Of a DNA stretch of 20,000 bases, positions 8,214 to 20,000 are shown in pieces; the first letter of the stretch is position 1; each line of letters starts with the position of its first letter. This DNA is from an uncultured virus (IMG/VR IMGVR_UViG_3300049783_001162) (taxonomy: Duplodnaviria > Heunggongvirae > Uroviricota > Caudoviricetes): IMG/VR virus record IMGVR_UViG_3300049783_001162. One strand, given 5' to 3'. Under the pieces are notes generated by a model. The model was not told the DNA's origin. It ran no database searches and worked only from the letters and a program-made list of their open reading frames with translations. A program made the translations under genes and the position numbers.

Positions 8214-9344
8214 ATGAAAATAACAAAAACACCCAAGCCATACAAAATGAAAACTATTCCAGAAGTAATAAAAATTAGAAAAGAAATATCTCAGCATATT
8301 AACAGCACTAGCTGTTTGCATACGCTAACATCTTACCACAATTATCTACTCAAGGGAAATTTACAGCCAGTTATAAAATCTGCATTGGTTTCCAAGTTTG
8401 GTAGGTCAAACGGTAATGATAAACGGTTGCTCGATACATTTATAAATGGGCAAGGTAGTATACAAGAAAAAATTGAATTATTCAATAAAATTATAAGCAA
8501 AGACGGCGTGTTTTCGGGAAGTAAACTTTTAAAATATAGCTATGCCAACTTGTATGATATGATCAATGCAGAATCTCCATTGTTATACCAGTATGTTAAC
8601 GACATTTCGGCAATGGCCGGCAAGATGGGATACAGCAGCGGCGATGTTGGACCTGGAGAGTTTTTGTTAGCCACATTCGGCAAAGGTATAAATTTTGCAG
8701 AAAAAGGCGATTTGACATTTACTGTGCCAACTTCCACTAACCCTATTGTTGTCGAAGTTAAAGGAACAGTAAAAGGCAGGAAGTCGTACAGCGGCGGCCG
8801 CCTTTGTGGAACTTCGGGCTACGGTAGCCCTACATCTGTTCGCAAGCAATTGTACAAAGTAATGGCAGATGTAGGCATCCTAGAGGGAGAATTACTCGAG
8901 CATGGCATGGAAGTTGACAAGCCAGTAATACGCGGCGGATTTAATTTAAACATATCTGGATTAACAAACCTAGATCGAGTAATTGGTGATTATACAGATT
9001 ACAATGGATCGGTTAAGATATTCACTACTATGCTTCAGGGATTGTACACACGCATTGACCAATTGTTGATTGATGAATTCTTGACAGTATTGGATAAAAA
9101 CGGAAGATTTACAGCAATCGCAATGCAAATGGCATTGGCACAAGTTGCATTTAGTTATTACAAATCTGTTGAAGACCACGATTGTGTAATGTTTCTAAAT
9201 ACTAAAAACGGCTGCTACGGCATTGCACACACTGCTGATGATATCAAGTTCCTTTATGATGAAGGACGCCTAACATTTACTTGCGAAATAAATTGGCACG
9301 ATGACAGAGCCAAGGGTAGCACGCAATTTATCTTTGGAAAATAA
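8214..9344 (+). CDS. Putative PD-(D/E)XK restriction-endonuclease-fold protein
   Basis: GDVGPGEFLL...KGDL...VEVKG..G matches the E...D...E-x-K pattern. A strong AAAGGA SD is present. Confidence 0.5.
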   Translation: MKITKTPKPYKMKTIPEVIKIRKEISQHINSTSCLHTLTSYHNYLLKGNLQPVIKSALVSKFGRSNGNDKRLLDTFINGQGSIQEKIELFNKIISKDGVFSGSKLLKYSYANLYDMINAESPLLYQYVNDISAMAGKMGYSSGDVGPGEFLLATFGKGINFAEKGDLTFTVPTSTNPIVVEVKGTVKGRKSYSGGRLCGTSGYGSPTSVRKQLYKVMADVGILEGELLEHGMEVDKPVIRGGFNLNISGLTNLDRVIGDYTDYNGSVKIFTTMLQGLYTRIDQLLIDEFLTVLDKNGRFTAIAMQMALAQVAFSYYKSVEDHDCVMFLNTKNGCYGIAHTADDIKFLYDEGRLTFTCEINWHDDRAKGSTQFIFGK

Positions 9345-9354
9345 AGGAATTACC

Positions 9355-9915
9355 ATGAAAATTAAATCTAAAAAAGACGAGCATAACCGACTAAATCTTG
9401 ATTTTTATCAAAATCGGGTAGATACTAATATTGCAATTAAAAAGTTTTTAATTAATAAGATATTTGAGCACGATCCGGATTTTAAAATGGATAAAGAAAG
9501 TATGATGGCGGCCTTGGTTTATGAAGACTTATTAGAGATAGCAATTGCTGTAGTGAACAAAGATCTACGTATTGTACTCGGTCGGGGCAGAGATTACTGC
9601 GATAATTCTGATGCTAAGTTTACGTGTGTTAGAACAAGCGGTTATGGCAAATCATATTCGGCAATGGTTTCTGGAACTAGGAATAAAATTGGAGATTTAA
9701 GAGTACAATGTTACGAAAGAAAATTAGATCAATTTTATTATTTTGTTATTCCGTACAAGATGTATAAAGATGTTCCAAAAACAAGTAATATTGAAATTCG
9801 ATTTAACTTAGACGGAACACCAAAGAGAGAAAACAACTGTAGAATCAATTGGTGGGACTGGGAAGAGGCATCTTTCGAAGATATGTGTACTGTAACTCAT
9901 ACAGGAGAAAAGTAA
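9355..9915 (+). CDS. Hypothetical protein, possible PD-(D/E)XK nuclease
   Basis: Start moved to ATG 9355 because AAAGGA lies upstream. YEDLLEIAI...GRDYCDNSDAKF gives an E...D...D-x-K pattern. Confidence 0.45.
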   Translation: MKIKSKKDEHNRLNLDFYQNRVDTNIAIKKFLINKIFEHDPDFKMDKESMMAALVYEDLLEIAIAVVNKDLRIVLGRGRDYCDNSDAKFTCVRTSGYGKSYSAMVSGTRNKIGDLRVQCYERKLDQFYYFVIPYKMYKDVPKTSNIEIRFNLDGTPKRENNCRINWWDWEEASFEDMCTVTHTGEK

Positions 9916-15642: not shown

Positions 15643-15960
15643 ATGACACAAATTAAAAAAATCACCAAAGACATGGTAAAGGACGCACTGAGAGAAGTAT
15701 ACGATCCAGAAATTGCAGGGATTAGTGTACAAGACTTGGGACTAATTTATGAGATAAATATCACAGGCGATCACGTACATGTTAAGCACACACTTACAAG
15801 TATGATGTGTCCGTTTGCAGAAGAAATATGTTCGGATATATATGAAGCAGTTGCAGGCATAGACGGAGTTGCAACAGTTAATAGAGAACTGGTATTTCAG
15901 CCTGAATTTTCTGTAGAGATGGTTCCTGAGGATACAAGAATGATTATGGGATGGTACTAA
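15643..15960 (+). CDS. DUF59 / SufT / PaaD / MIP18-like metal-sulfur cluster assembly factor
   Basis: ALREVYDPEI..ISVQDLGLIYEI and TLTSMMCP give the DPE-X-T-X-C signature. Confidence 0.88.
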   Translation: MTQIKKITKDMVKDALREVYDPEIAGISVQDLGLIYEINITGDHVHVKHTLTSMMCPFAEEICSDIYEAVAGIDGVATVNRELVFQPEFSVEMVPEDTRMIMGWY

Positions 15961-15982: not shown

Positions 15983-17392
15983 ATGAGTACAAGACAAAAT
16001 ACAGACTACGGGTTTGATATACAAAAAGTATATTTAGAAATGATGATGAGCGACGCAGCAACATTTGTACGTTGCCAGAGTGTGTTTGATGCAGAATCGT
16101 TTGATAGAAGATTAAAGCCTGCTGCCGAATTTCTAAACAACTATGTCATTGATCATAATGCATTACCTACATTTGACATGATCAATGCTGCTACGCACAC
16201 GCAACTCAAAGATCCGGGCATACTACAAGATTCGCATTACGATTGGTTGCTAACAGAATTTGAAACGTTTTCTAGGCACAAAGCACTGGAAGCTGCAATT
16301 CTACAGAGTGCCGATTTGTTAGAAAAAGGCGAGTACGGCCCAGTTGAAGAACTGGTAAAGAAAGCTGTTCAAATTGGATTGCAAAGAGATCTTGGCACAG
16401 ACTACTGGGAAAACCCGCGTGCTAGATTAGAAGCAATTAAAGAAAATAACGGACAAGTGAGCACAGGCTGGAAAAACCTAGACAAGAAATTGTTTGGTGG
16501 ATTTAACAGAGGCGAGCTTAATATCTTTGCTGGAGGTTCGGGTGCTGGTAAAAGTTTATTCCTTGCTAATCTAGGAGTCAATTGGAGTCTCATGGGCATG
16601 AATGTGCTGTACTTAACATTCGAACTTAGCGAGAACCTAGTAAGTATGCGCATTGACAGCATGGTAACTGGTATTCCCAGCAGAGACGTGTTTAAAACAA
16701 TCGACGATGTTGAAATGAAAGTTAAGATGATCGGAAAGAAAGCAGGAGCTTTCCAAGTCAAGTACATGCCATCTGGCAAGAATGCAAACGATATTCGCAG
16801 CTACATCAAAGAATACGAAATTAAGACAGGACGCAAGATTGATGTTCTGTTGATTGACTATTTGGATCTTATGATGCCATTGAGTGTTAAAATTTCTCCA
16901 GAAAACTTGTTTGTTAAAGACAAGTATGTAAGTGAAGAACTACGTAACTTGGCAATGGAATTGCAGACAATTTTTGTTACAGCGTCGCAGCTGAACAGAG
17001 GAGCAGTTGAGGAAGTTGAATTTGACCACTCGCACATCTCCGGAGGCCTTAGTAAAATCAATACAGCAGACAACGTGATTGGTATATTTACAAGCAGAGC
17101 AATGCGAGAACGAGGACGTTATCAATTGCAGTTGATGAAGACAAGAAGCTCAAGCGGTGTTAATTCAAAGATCGATTTAGGGTTTGAAGTTGACAGTTTG
17201 CGCATCATCGACTGTGAAGAAGATGATGAAGATTCGCCACAAGGACAAACAACTGGAAGTAGCATTGTTGCAAATCTCAAACGCAATAGCTCAACAAATC
17301 CTTCTGAGGGTGCGCCTGTTGCTAAAGTAACAGCAGAAACCGACGGCACTAAGTTACGCGCTTTCCTAAATGGCTTGGGTCAAGACGAGTAG
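15983..17392 (+). CDS. Replicative DnaB-like helicase (T4 gp41-like)
   Basis: STGW..LD....GGF.RGEL, GGSGAGKS (Walker A), YLTFELSE, IDYLDLM, TASQLNR and LMKTR. An AAGAGG SD is present. Confidence 0.92.
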   Translation: MSTRQNTDYGFDIQKVYLEMMMSDAATFVRCQSVFDAESFDRRLKPAAEFLNNYVIDHNALPTFDMINAATHTQLKDPGILQDSHYDWLLTEFETFSRHKALEAAILQSADLLEKGEYGPVEELVKKAVQIGLQRDLGTDYWENPRARLEAIKENNGQVSTGWKNLDKKLFGGFNRGELNIFAGGSGAGKSLFLANLGVNWSLMGMNVLYLTFELSENLVSMRIDSMVTGIPSRDVFKTIDDVEMKVKMIGKKAGAFQVKYMPSGKNANDIRSYIKEYEIKTGRKIDVLLIDYLDLMMPLSVKISPENLFVKDKYVSEELRNLAMELQTIFVTASQLNRGAVEEVEFDHSHISGGLSKINTADNVIGIFTSRAMRERGRYQLQLMKTRSSSGVNSKIDLGFEVDSLRIIDCEEDDEDSPQGQTTGSSIVANLKRNSSTNPSEGAPVAKVTAETDGTKLRAFLNGLGQDE

Positions 17393-17880
17393 TGTACACG
17401 CATCTTAACACTGCGCACAATCAAGTTGTTGCTGCTGGGCATATCGTTTCTTGGAGCAAAATCTATTAGTGCTCCAAACGATATGTCTGCAACATCAATA
17501 TCTTCCATCCCCCAATATGCACCAAGAAGTCCACTGTATGTTTTGATATTCTCTGTGCTGAGATCCGATACGTCTGTGCCGCTTGTGCCAAGTGCAAGCA
17601 ATTGAACTCTGTCATCTTGAATGCGTGAATATCGTTGTGCTTCTATACGCAGTTCAACTCTGTCAACCACACCAGCAGCAAATGAAAAGTTGGTGTATAT
17701 CAGTCCCTTGCTGCCATAGGTGTTGACTTTGTCGTTGTAATCCTGCGCAGATGCATACAACAACGCAGTGCTCTGTAGGTCTGTGGTTTGATCTAATACA
17801 CTATCTCCATCAGTGAAGTCTATACCTTCATCTGTGTCTTGTGCTATAGTTGCGGGGGTTTTCCAATTGGTCCATGTCAT
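17380..17880 (-). CDS. Hypothetical acidic beta-rich protein, possibly virion-associated
   Basis: Probable start is ATG 17880 (MTWTNWKTP), preceded on the minus strand by ATAAATA 5 nt upstream. It overlaps the helicase convergently. Confidence 0.6.
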   Translation of the reverse strand: MTWTNWKTPATIAQDTDEGIDFTDGDSVLDQTTDLQSTALLYASAQDYNDKVNTYGSKGLIYTNFSFAAGVVDRVELRIEAQRYSRIQDDRVQLLALGTSGTDVSDLSTENIKTYSGLLGAYWGMEDIDVADISFGALIDFAPRNDMPSSNNLIVRSVKMRVHYSS

Positions 17881-17994: not shown

Positions 17995-18050
17995 CAACCA
18001 CGTCGATAGCTAGCTATCGACGTGTCGTTAGGGCCCTATCGACACGGTTG
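17995..18050. repeat. Two tandem 22-bp palindromic units inside an outer inverted repeat
   Basis: CAACC-a-[CGTCGATAG-CTAG-CTATCGACG][TGTCGTTAG-GGCC-CTATCGACA]-c-GGTTG. Bases 17999-18024 form a perfect 26-bp palindrome. Confidence 0.9.
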
Positions 18051-18103: not shown

Positions 18104-18388
18104 TCACTTGCTGTATGGTGTTATTATCAATGTTTTACAATCGTGTTTTAACGCGAACATGGTCATTGCTGAACGGCGTTTGTGCCAAGCAAGTATAATA
18201 GCAGGACGACCATGCCCGCGCGGCCACTCGTCATTGATATTAAGATCAACTATAAACCCTTGGTCTGTTAACAGCTTGCCCAGTATCCTTGCTTCGCTTC
18301 TTAGAAATAGTGTATTTCCTTGCGGCCCCGAAACACTGCGCCAAGGCCGACGTTCCAAGGTCCAACAAGATTCGGCAAGTTCTGTCAT
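18104..18388 (-). CDS. Small paralog-family protein (W..GF..H..A..F.L family)
   Basis: CWTL...LTDQGFIV...AWHKRRSAMTMFALKH. ATGA coupling to the upstream gene. Confidence 0.7.
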   Translation of the reverse strand: MTELAESCWTLERRPWRSVSGPQGNTLFLRSEARILGKLLTDQGFIVDLNINDEWPRGHGRPAIILAWHKRRSAMTMFALKHDCKTLIITPYSK

Positions 18389-18639
18389 TGTTCTATCTTA
18401 ACGCATTCTACACTAAATGGGCATAGTCCTGTTTCGTTGAGAATGAACAAGTCCAATGCATATTTGCTCATGTGAATTACAAACAATTTAGTTTTCGGTA
18501 TATGATCAACTAAGAAGCACCTTCCGCCTCGGTGGACTACAAACCCGGCTTGTTCAAATCTATGAACTAGACCCAGATAATTCCCAAGGCCGAAATTATC
18601 TTCCGGCTGTGGAGTGTGCAGTGTCCAGCGATAAATCAT
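18385..18639 (-). CDS. Small paralog-family protein
   Basis: YRWTL...FEQAGFVV...VIHMSKYALDLFIL. ATGA overlaps at both ends. Confidence 0.7.
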   Translation of the reverse strand: MIYRWTLHTPQPEDNFGLGNYLGLVHRFEQAGFVVHRGGRCFLVDHIPKTKLFVIHMSKYALDLFILNETGLCPFSVECVKIEQ

Positions 18640-18917
18640 TGGCCAATCCTTGTGTTCTTTGAATATCCACTTGCCCGCGGCTGACTGCTTTCAAATACAA
18701 CAATATCGTTGATGTGCAGCACGCCGCGTGTGTTGGCAGCATCAGCTAGGACCTGCAACCGGGCTCTGTTGATCAACTTGACAAAATCTGGATATGTGTA
18801 CAACAACGCGCCTGTGCAACGATCTTGGATCCACATACGCTGGAATGCCTTTACAATGCCAAATTGTTGATCTGTGTTGCTCTTGGGAACAGCAACCTGC
18901 CGAGGAAGTGTGTACAC
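18636..18917 (-). CDS. Hypothetical protein (93 aa), not a member of the paralog family
   Basis: GTG start with AAAGGA upstream on the minus strand. Its stop overlaps the next ATG (ATGA). Confidence 0.6.
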   Translation of the reverse strand: MYTLPRQVAVPKSNTDQQFGIVKAFQRMWIQDRCTGALLYTYPDFVKLINRARLQVLADAANTRGVLHINDIVVFESSQPRASGYSKNTRIGQ

Positions 18918-18957
18918 GATAGTAGTTCCTTTGTATCAACTGTGATATTACTTGCTC

Positions 18958-18996
18958 AACGTAGCATGTTGACACGGGCATGTCAACAAGTATATT
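18958..18996. promoter_or_regulatory. Palindromic TGTTGACA-N6-TGTCAACA element providing overlapping opposite-strand -35 boxes
   Basis: Inverted repeat at 18967-18974/18981-18988. Minus strand: TTGACA-17-TGcTACGTT (18963-18958). Plus strand: TTGACA-16-TATATT (18991-18996). Confidence 0.5.
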
Positions 18997-19007
18997 CACA
19001 ACCTACC

Positions 19008-19041
19008 GTTATTACCCAAGATAACATCGATGGGTAATAAC
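19008..19041. repeat. Hairpin with an 11-bp perfect stem
   Basis: GTTATTACCCA-N12-TGGGTAATAAC. Confidence 0.8.
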
Positions 19042-19167
19042 CTCGGCGATGTCCAGCCATCCTTGCCATCAAGAGCCCGAAAGCCTAGAGGCCTGCCTAG
19101 CAGGGCAACGCAAAAAATTTTCACGGGTCTTTTTCGCAGTTGCATTCCTGCGTGTGATTTGTCTGTG

Positions 19168-19199
19168 ATCCAAAAGTTTGCGACGCAAACTTTTAGGAT
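19168..19199. terminator. Palindrome, possible (bidirectional) intrinsic terminator
   Basis: AAAAGTTTGCG-A-CGCAAACTTTT (19172-19194) flanked by ATCC/GGAT. It lies just past the stop of the minus-strand gene ending at 19214 and has T4 tails in both directions. Confidence 0.45.
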
Positions 19200-19213
19200 G
19201 CACCTCCCGTGGG

Positions 19214-19456
19214 TTATAATGCGGTTATCCTCATATCCATACCATGCGCATCAAATGCCAGCAGAAACAGTGTGAGGGCTCGTGCATGTTCATGTGACAC
19301 AGAGTAGCAGAATCTAGGGCCAACACTCCTGTACATGTCTGGCTGAGAATTGCTTAATTTTACACTGAATCCACGGCGGTTTAGAGTTCGTACAAAACCA
19401 TGTCGACGGCTGGGGATTCCCCAGTCGACTACAATGCTTATCTTCCAAGTGTTCAT
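19214..19456 (-). CDS. Small paralog-family protein
   Basis: MNTWKI...LNRRGFSV...YSVSHEHARALTLFLL. ATGA coupling. Confidence 0.72.
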   Translation of the reverse strand: MNTWKISIVVDWGIPSRRHGFVRTLNRRGFSVKLSNSQPDMYRSVGPRFCYSVSHEHARALTLFLLAFDAHGMDMRITAL

Positions 19457-19677
19457 AATTCAGTTACCTGCATTTCTTCCATCACGTTGCTCCACTTCAG
19501 TGAAAACATCATCATGGCATGCGCACCGGCATGTGTTACAATCCAACTGCTGTATGCAGTATCAGGATCAGGCGAAAGTGTTTTAAAGCATGCAAAGCCA
19601 AATTCTCGTAGAGTACTTAGAACAACGTCTTCGGCTGCAGGCGCAAAGCAGGTTACGTCCACTCGCCACTTATGCAT
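19453..19677 (-). CDS. Small paralog-family protein
   Basis: MHKWRV...LREFGFAC...WIVTHAGAHAMMMFSLKW. ATGCATAA overlap with the upstream gene. Confidence 0.72.
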   Translation of the reverse strand: MHKWRVDVTCFAPAAEDVVLSTLREFGFACFKTLSPDPDTAYSSWIVTHAGAHAMMMFSLKWSNVMEEMQVTEL

Positions 19678-19903
19678 CGGACACCCTGTAAGTGACTTCA
19701 GGTGTGCTTGCAGCCAACAAGAACATCATCATGGCACGCTTGCTGGCATGTGAAACAGCGTATGTGAATCGCGACCCCTGGGTTTCGCCTACAAACACAA
19801 TTTTAAATCCGGCCTGATCCAGGTCACATTCAACGCGATGCTGACGCGCCAGGCTGTGTCTGCTATGCGAATCGATTCTGATCAACAACTTCCATTTATG
19901 CAT
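19670..19903 (-). CDS. Small paralog-family protein
   Basis: Start moved to ATG 19903 (MHKWKL...LDQAGFKI...YAVSHASKRAMMMFLL). ATGCATAA overlap with the upstream gene. Confidence 0.72.
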   Translation of the reverse strand: MHKWKLLIRIDSHSRHSLARQHRVECDLDQAGFKIVFVGETQGSRFTYAVSHASKRAMMMFLLAASTPEVTYRVSDA

Positions 19904-20000
19904 TAGAGTACTCTGATATGACAGTGAACAAATTCGCATCAACTGTTAGCATGTGGATCATCATAGCGTGTTTGCTGTGGTGCTGTACAGTGTAACGCCA
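19896..20000 (-). CDS. Small paralog-family protein, 5' truncated by the window edge
   Basis: Hand translation from 20000 gives WRYTVQHHSKHAMMIHMLTVDANLFTVISEYSNA*, which matches the family C-terminal motif. Confidence 0.65.
   Translation of the reverse strand, partial: WRYTVQHHSKHAMMIHMLTVDANLFTVISEYSNA

Follow-up and report, generated by a model that had tools for sequence, protein, structure and literature searches.

Arrays of small paralogous genes are already known in jumbo phages, where they account for much of the unexplained content. Arrays of more than 30 similar genes occur in jumbo phages (PMC13282480), Bacillus phage G possesses about 35 copies of a zinc-ribbon gene (PMC7824862), and large vibriophages have variable regions rich in uncharacterised and anti-defence genes (PMC12028318). 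Here, an array of diverged small genes is described from an uncultured virus of the Caudoviricetes, IMG/VR record IMGVR_UViG_3300049783_001162. The stretch analysed (the window, 20,000 nucleotides (nt)) is the terminal 20 kb of a linear virus contig of 71,885 bp, and the array reaches the window end, which coincides with the end of the contig. The encoded protein family appears to be undescribed; no paper on it was found in the literature, where supplements may list such genes as hypothetical. Copy number and content of the array differ between strains, and this accordion-like behaviour can be stated with high confidence. What the proteins do is a more tentative matter, and the preferred reading is that they may form a repertoire of small proteins that bind host proteins and recombine with one another, built on a ferredoxin-like scaffold.

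The original prediction, made from the sequence alone, had noticed at least six small, highly diverged paralogs on the minus strand, and all of its open reading frames (ORFs) and quoted motifs are present (Table 1). Pairwise identity among the five complete copies is 14-31%. Copies A and B show no significant pairwise similarity (z -0.2), so that these two belong to the family only by way of the profile. In leave-one-out profiles, the held-out copies scored 11.3-35.7 bits, and none of 1000 shuffles scored as high for any of the six copies. A scan of the whole 71.9-kb contig for further copies, which had been proposed as a check, returned six matches, all within this array. Paralog F is cut by the window edge, as had been claimed. 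A database protein of 83 amino acids (aa), P0040, has terminal 34 residues identical to F and is probably, by this identity, its full-length form. A single housekeeping family had been named as a possible refutation; no significant family match was found in Pfam, PHROGs, NCBIfam or PADLOC, where the best were single-member matches (E-value 0.006-0.4), or among PDB sequences (best E-value 0.41).

The junctions are also as described: F/E and E/D are 8-nt ATGCATAA overlaps, and D/C, X/B and B/A are ATGA overlaps. In the Tara Oceans scaffold L001 (see below), all six upstream starts carry ATGCATAA(G/A)TGG, against an expectation of 0.00025; since MHKW and the stop codon before it are read from these letters, the word is constrained by coding. 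The claim of a continuous array held only in part. The family is tandem, but its copies form two blocks, F-E-D-C and B-A, and about 575 nt with a spacer, a putative promoter and the ORF X lie between C and B.

Table 1. Features of the array locus (window positions) and, in the last three rows, the carriers of a single-copy gene behind the helicase (positions in their own records).
Feature	Coordinates	Strand	Basis or remark
Paralog F, C-terminal 34 aa, cut by contig end	19896..20000	-	19.3 bits when held out, none of 1000 shuffles as high
Paralog E, 77 aa, predicted ferredoxin-like fold	19670..19903	-	profile; AlphaFold pLDDT 90.1
Paralog D, 74 aa	19453..19677	-	profile; dN/dS 0.35 vs L001
Paralog C, 80 aa	19214..19456	-	profile; dN/dS 0.59 vs L001
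Hairpin-rich conserved spacer, possible terminator, processing site or small RNA	19000..19210	-	folding z -3.16
Putative sigma70-type promoter for X-B-A (TTGACA, 17 nt, TACGTT)	18958..18986	-	conserved in L001; inferred
ORF X, 93 aa, unrelated to family, coupled to B	18636..18917	-	profile score absent; first gene past putative promoter
Paralog B, 84 aa	18385..18639	-	leave-one-out 11.3 bits, 0/1000 shuffles
Paralog A, 94 aa	18104..18388	-	leave-one-out 13.2 bits, 0/1000 shuffles; AlphaFold pLDDT 78.5
Double palindrome closing array, with perfect 26-nt palindrome 17999-18024	17995..18050	.	conserved in relatives
Single-copy gene, L008	13138..13410		
Single-copy gene, L012	11931..12188		
Single-copy gene, L033, L034, L048, L049			

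Comparison of strains shows how the array varies. In L001, a scaffold from Tara Oceans, the layout is that of the window and there are nine complete copies, G1 (F type), G2, G3, G4, E, D, C, B and A, and its first bases resemble, by eye, the tail of a tenth. The window strain is without G2-G4. In two of the four sequencing runs compared (X5 and X7), contigs join position 239 of L001 to 997 with 55 other letters between, so that G2-G4 are skipped, and the position of this join is the end of the conserved His box (H-x-S-K-H-A-M). A joint at 242-760 in run X15 was not used, because one side of it was only 24 nt, and run X17 gave no contigs for this comparison. Run X5 holds both forms of the array (depth 22.4 versus 2.9-4.6), and its lower-depth contigs are identical to the G1-G2 and G3-G4 stretches. 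The main contig of X5 is near-identical to the window, of which it may be the source, and extends 527 nt beyond the window end. Upstream of F it has a second EDAGFVV-type match, and the window strain thus likely has at least seven copies. Alleles are chimeric, switching exactly at the His box. For example, P0038 and P0039 are identical over 63 residues through HHSKHAM and divergent afterwards, and the five F-type alleles have a common N-part and unlike tails.

A more distant relative, L004, has a helicase 86-97% identical to that of the window (in three pieces) and a neighbouring gene 91% identical. At the same locus it carries five complete paralogs together with a B-like copy that is truncated and the last part of one more, and its complete paralogs reach at best 24-39% identity to any copy of the window or L001. 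The B-like stretch (L004 115-459) is a C-terminal half with its own start absent and overlaps the end of the paralog H1; it is a truncated copy or an assembly join. Altogether, 75 distinct sequences fall into 14 subfamilies (defined at 45% linkage) with a mean between-subfamily identity of 20%, and the representatives of all 14 beat 300 of 300 shuffles in leave-one-out profiles. A tree resolves the subfamilies but, since the proteins are short, not their order of origin. The L001 allele of C starts with ATA, not ATG. Tandem duplication followed by diversification, as first proposed, is therefore supported and extended by the strains. An integron or shufflon cassette layout, which would have non-coding recombination sites between cassettes, appears unlikely: the genes overlap by 4 or 8 nt, and the repeats found lie inside coding sequence.

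Between the window and L001, DNA identity is 97% for E, 91% for D, 83% for C, 75% for B and 69% for A; the neighbouring X, the spacer and the downstream stretch are 93%, 94% and 91% identical, respectively. The ratio of nonsynonymous to synonymous substitution rates (dN/dS) is 0 in E, with six silent and no amino-acid differences from the Tara allele, 0.35 in D, 0.59 in C, 0.61 in B, 0.54 in A and 0.40 in the unrelated X. All compared genes are intact with dN/dS below 1, so that they are kept by purifying selection. The faster turnover of A, B and C than of their neighbours, with dS raised too, suggests that their alleles were replaced by recombination. The gene-wide values of 0-0.61 do not show positive selection.

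A beta-alpha-beta-beta-alpha-beta scaffold had been guessed from the sequence, and AlphaFold2 predicts this topology for both E (predicted local distance difference test (pLDDT) 90.1, predicted template modelling score (pTM) 0.77) and A (pLDDT 78.5, pTM 0.69). A low-confidence Atlas model of B (pLDDT 0.51) matched ferredoxin-like clusters with template modelling (TM) scores of 0.56-0.65. The shared fold is, as predicted for E and A, the ferredoxin-like superfold. Among 48,161 solved chains, the best match is ribosomal S6 (Z 11.1, root-mean-square deviation (rmsd) 1.6, 77 residues aligned); CheA-P2 matches at Z 10.3 (rmsd 2.2, 75 aligned) and ACT domains at Z 8.5-9.1. Overall, structural matches have Z 8.5-11.1 over 72-77 residues with sequence identity of 4-16%. 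Foldseek additionally gave PII/SbtB, S10/NusE and acylphosphatase, and E2 domains are also among the fold matches. Since the superfold is common and its matches are nearly tied across unrelated families, the fold names no function. The more specific label "ferredoxin/ACT-like" stands at the level of the fold, but S6 and CheA-P2 outscore ACT, and no ACT profile matched in Pfam (20 members, E-value up to 1) or NCBIfam (25 members, E-value up to 0.5). ACT domains have a conserved, glycine-containing ligand loop between beta1 and alpha1. In the 14 subfamilies of the array, the beta1-alpha1 loop is of variable length, and none of its residues is conserved. The S6 family, too, gave no sequence match in Pfam, NCBIfam or PDB sequences, and its structural alignments show 8-13% identity.

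Residues W4, F33 and A57 are invariant across all 14 subfamilies and H52 is present in 13, and the spacing between them varies (21-36 residues from W to F, 17-27 from F to H); other conserved columns are mostly hydrophobic core positions. The loops differ in length and sequence, the isoelectric point (pI) ranges from 4.3 to 10.8 and the charge from -11 to +6. Among alleles, 120 of 215 columns are variable in two loop regions, compared with 92 of 247 core columns, and the p value of 8e-5 is weak support because the regions were drawn post hoc and the columns are non-independent. The known topology of this fold would place W4, the GF turn and the His together at one end of the sheet, with the loops beta1-alpha1, beta2-beta3 and alpha2-beta4 at the opposite end. 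In all 14 subfamilies, helix 2 has hydrophobic residues at five positions that span about 220 degrees of the helical wheel, a hint of a conserved interface. The shared MHKW start lies in strand 1 of the domain (residues 2-10 of E).

From these elements, the following mechanism can be drawn. Ordinary homologous recombination, with crossovers in the ATGCATAA-TGG junction and in the H-x-S-K-H-A-M box, would add, remove and recombine copies, and thanks to the head-to-tail overlaps new products would stay in frame and be translated together. With the W, GF and His-x4-Ala residues, which are conserved, at one sheet end and the length-variable loops at the other, the protein would amount to a fixed scaffold with a variable binding pole. 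Host RNA polymerase may transcribe X-B-A from the sigma70-type promoter, and at least these copies would be made early. Each copy would then bind a different host factor, such as a defence or regulatory protein, and the set would be tuned to the host strain. The fold class includes protein-docking domains, e.g., CheA-P2, which counts for such a role; that the proteins are binders is suggested by anatomy and analogy. In a more far-reaching form, which is doubtful, the array would be a shuffled binder library with three loops at one pole, whose cassettes or half-cassettes are swapped at two homology boxes that double as translation-coupling signals, giving new anti-host specificities within a population.

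Several observations weigh against the binder repertoire. No gene has dN/dS above 1, and the E protein is unchanged between strains. Greater variability of loops than of core is expected in any protein, and the clustering of the loops in space was drawn from the topology, not from coordinates. The proteins match no characterised inhibitor in the libraries searched. The promoter candidate has a weak -10 element and was not listed by a consensus scanner, which gave an overlapping plus-strand site instead, and the promoter of the upstream block lies off the contig. Finally, the most widespread subfamily, H4 (26 of the 75 sequences), has a late-looking TAAATA-5nt-ATG start, unlike what an all-early role would have. 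Characterised anti-defence proteins (Acr, Tad, Acb) were absent from the Pfam, PHROG, NCBIfam, PDB-sequence and fold matches, no dedicated anti-defence library having been used, and the array proteins gave no match to PF18406 or PF06924 of the YubB/Api92 (DUF1281) group.

The timing of expression bears on the best surviving alternative. The Pseudomonas phage PA5oct is dependent on host RNA polymerase with TTGAC/TATAATA promoters and has many early genes, mostly uncharacterised (PMC7318152). By analogy, this promoter use and the sigma70-type motif before X-B-A suggest early expression of these genes from the putative promoter. On the other hand, five of the contig's ORFs have ATAAATA in front of them with the ATG exactly 5 nt on (minus strand of window 17380-17880; contig positions 2275, 35120, 40638 and 46137). 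TAAATA-5nt-ATG precedes H4, the last paralog of L004, and this motif also agrees with the N-terminal extensions mis-called in H4-type proteins. The TAAATA motif resembles the T4 late promoter. Its total of 8 is within the permuted-hexamer range of 1-9; the telling feature is the spacing, which is fixed in 6 of the 8. ATAAATA-5nt-ATG is likely a late promoter that gives leaderless mRNA in this phage group; the sequencing runs with the array include no listed RNA run. A late start of this kind would suit a role as adaptors or specificity subunits within a single phage machine, or as late virion or internal proteins injected with the DNA, as at the variable T4 internal-protein locus. Docking on one partner could involve the conserved pole and the broad hydrophobic face of helix 2, and the MHKW start is common to the upstream block. 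However, this shared N-terminus is strand 1 of the domain rather than a removable leader, X-B-A is preceded by a sigma70-type motif, and the TAAATA total does not exceed the permuted range. Moreover, the family was found in none of 10 large related records including Paride and Atu_ph07 (8 of which are 28-73% complete; the window's own contig served as positive control), which argues against a core virion part. Adaptors or virion proteins are thus an unlikely explanation.

The hydrophobic helix 2 can also be read as an oligomerisation surface. The proteins would then be oligomeric sponges or sensors for small molecules, similar to ACT or PII, with loops lining nucleotide or metabolite pockets. 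Hydrophobicity over about 220 degrees is indeed beyond the need of sheet packing, translational coupling suits hetero-oligomers, and SbtB/PII and ACT are among the fold matches. But besides the His no polar or basic ligand residues are conserved, neither an ACT nor a PII profile matched, and the charge spans the whole range given above. These points make sponges or sensors quite improbable.

Binding to nucleic acids or ribosomes, as by RRM, S6/S10 or papillomavirus E2-like domains, is very doubtful. Such proteins would regulate host or phage transcripts or DNA, possibly at the hairpins and palindromes of the locus. S6 is the best structural match, S10/NusE and E2 domains are also found, E, C and A are basic (pI 9.7-10.8), and conserved hairpins flank the blocks; set against this, the identity to S6 is low, several copies are acidic (pI 4.3-5.6), no pattern of exposed aromatic or basic residues is conserved across subfamilies, and the near-tie of fold matches extends to unrelated families. 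The least probable explanation is that a domain which folds easily expanded by mostly neutral birth and death of copies, maintained by the array's own recombination-prone structure, with little function per copy. It would fit the loss of copies without evident cost, the truncated B-like copy of L004, the ATA start of C in L001 and, as relaxed constraint, the raised dN/dS of A, B and C, but it agrees poorly with the six silent and zero replacement changes of E, the dN/dS below 1 in all compared genes, the retained coupling junctions and the persistence of fold-defining residues at 20% mean identity.

The family itself seems to be confined to a narrow phage lineage. A fold search of BFVD gave no match at an E-value of 0.001 or better, and at rank 4 was a 72-aa protein of Atu_ph07 (E-value 1.9e-3, TM 0.62). 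No match was obtained by tblastn of E, an H4-type protein and a single-copy sister gene against 50,697 phage records, no locus in GTDB genomes with the H4 alignment, and nothing in IMG/VR scans with E, X or the D alignment. The reach of these searches is limited, and distant relatives may be missed.

The single-copy gene, itself undescribed, encodes 85-90 aa and was found in related marine phages. It follows the helicase at a distance of 427-1704 nt in 6 of the 80 relatives compared, 50 of which have at least 2.5 kb downstream; these are the best 80 (65-83% identity) of 601 IMG/VR stretches. It had no match in Pfam or PHROG. Profile-profile comparison gave a weak match to the array family, with E-values of 1.2e-6 and 1.9e-5, with probabilities of 91% (2 sequences) and 78% (13 sequences), and on sequence grounds the gene is probably related. 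It shares the neighbourhood with the array copies and has a similar helix1-GW/F-strand and A-x-x-F-x-L-K pattern, but it is well conserved, occurs once, has no His and is encoded on the same strand as the helicase. The array may have it as its sister or its source. In Paride and Atu_ph07, the genes that follow the helicase were rejected as relatives, as they look helical and the motif is absent by eye.

Between and around the blocks, further elements are conserved. The spacer is more stably folded than expected, with 1 of 200 shuffles equally stable, and its 94% identity to L001 is above that of C, B or A; covariation was found in none of 71 pairs (two-sided, two sequences), and Rfam gave no match. 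Within it, a stop-free frame of 73 codons from ATA (18996-19217) overlaps the stop of C, and no profile run placed this frame in the family. In the promoter candidate, both hexamers and their spacing are retained in L001, while the surrounding 82 nt are just 71% identical. ORF X, which gave no score with the family profile and no match in Pfam or PHROG, is the likelier of two overlapping frames, since the other (18742-18999) has a dN/dS of 0.95 and was rejected as a gene. The double palindrome is kept in L001, L003 and L004 (E-value 1e-24 or better) despite the differing last gene of the array. A 17-nt pattern search with the palindrome gave six loci, three already known and three chance matches in capsid-like genes of unrelated phages. 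In the H4-type proteins P0047 and P0049, the mis-called N-terminal extensions resemble, at the protein level, repeats of the palindrome word upstream of H4 in other phages.

The phage is likely a jumbo phage. Its 71.9-kb contig is rated 20% complete, its helicase has jumbo-phage kinship, and an H4-type member of the family lies on a contig of 368,678 bp. Another contig with family members measures 123.5 kb. The window encodes a DnaB-like helicase and a primase. Among the 50,697 phage records the helicase is nearest to those of PA5oct and Paride, which are Pseudomonas phages (50%), and of the Agrobacterium phage Atu_ph07 (48.6%); the 601 confirmed IMG/VR stretches are uncultured, and many are closer than the cultured phages. 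Family material comes from ice metagenomes and from the sea (Tara Oceans). The 10 runs with at least half of the array words are all ice metagenomes of 2024, possibly from one campaign, and the window DNA may come from 4 of them. Directly before the helicase, at 15643-15960, the phage encodes an Fe-S cluster assembly protein (PF01883, SufT/PaaD-like). In L003 and L004, the helicase gene aligns as three pieces with long insertions between, one of which ends THNS-like; their sequence suggests inteins or homing elements. Two ORFs of 376 and 204 aa in a stretch of low G+C content (8214-9915) resemble nuclease-type insertions by eye, and had no match in Pfam or PHROG.

With its confident fold, clear conserved and variable parts, 14 subfamilies, and copy loss and chimeras in one sample, the array is a tractable case. 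It suits the question of whether selection for a set of binders or neutral expansion lies behind arrays of this kind, and if the proteins are binders, they would indicate host targets that are new and provide a natural scaffold of small size. Like the paralog arrays of jumbo phages, it is a tandem expansion of one small gene without assigned function in a genome that is probably very large. It differs from them in that its copies are about 20% identical and ferredoxin-like, and that gain, loss and chimeras are seen between co-occurring strains; evidence of shuffling is unusually direct for such arrays. With bS6, CheA P2, ACT and PII/SbtB the copies share the predicted beta-alpha-beta-beta-alpha-beta topology, whereas the W..GF..H-x4-A signature is absent from these families as far as profile scans tested. 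A variable number of small tandem genes, tied to host conflict and expanding and contracting by recombination, is also found in the T4 internal-protein locus and in gene accordions of the poxvirus type. T4 internal proteins are injected with the DNA and have a cleavable N-terminal capsid-targeting leader, which the array copies do not have, as their MHKW start is strand 1. The copies of the present array are also ancient and diverged, not recent and identical as in those systems.

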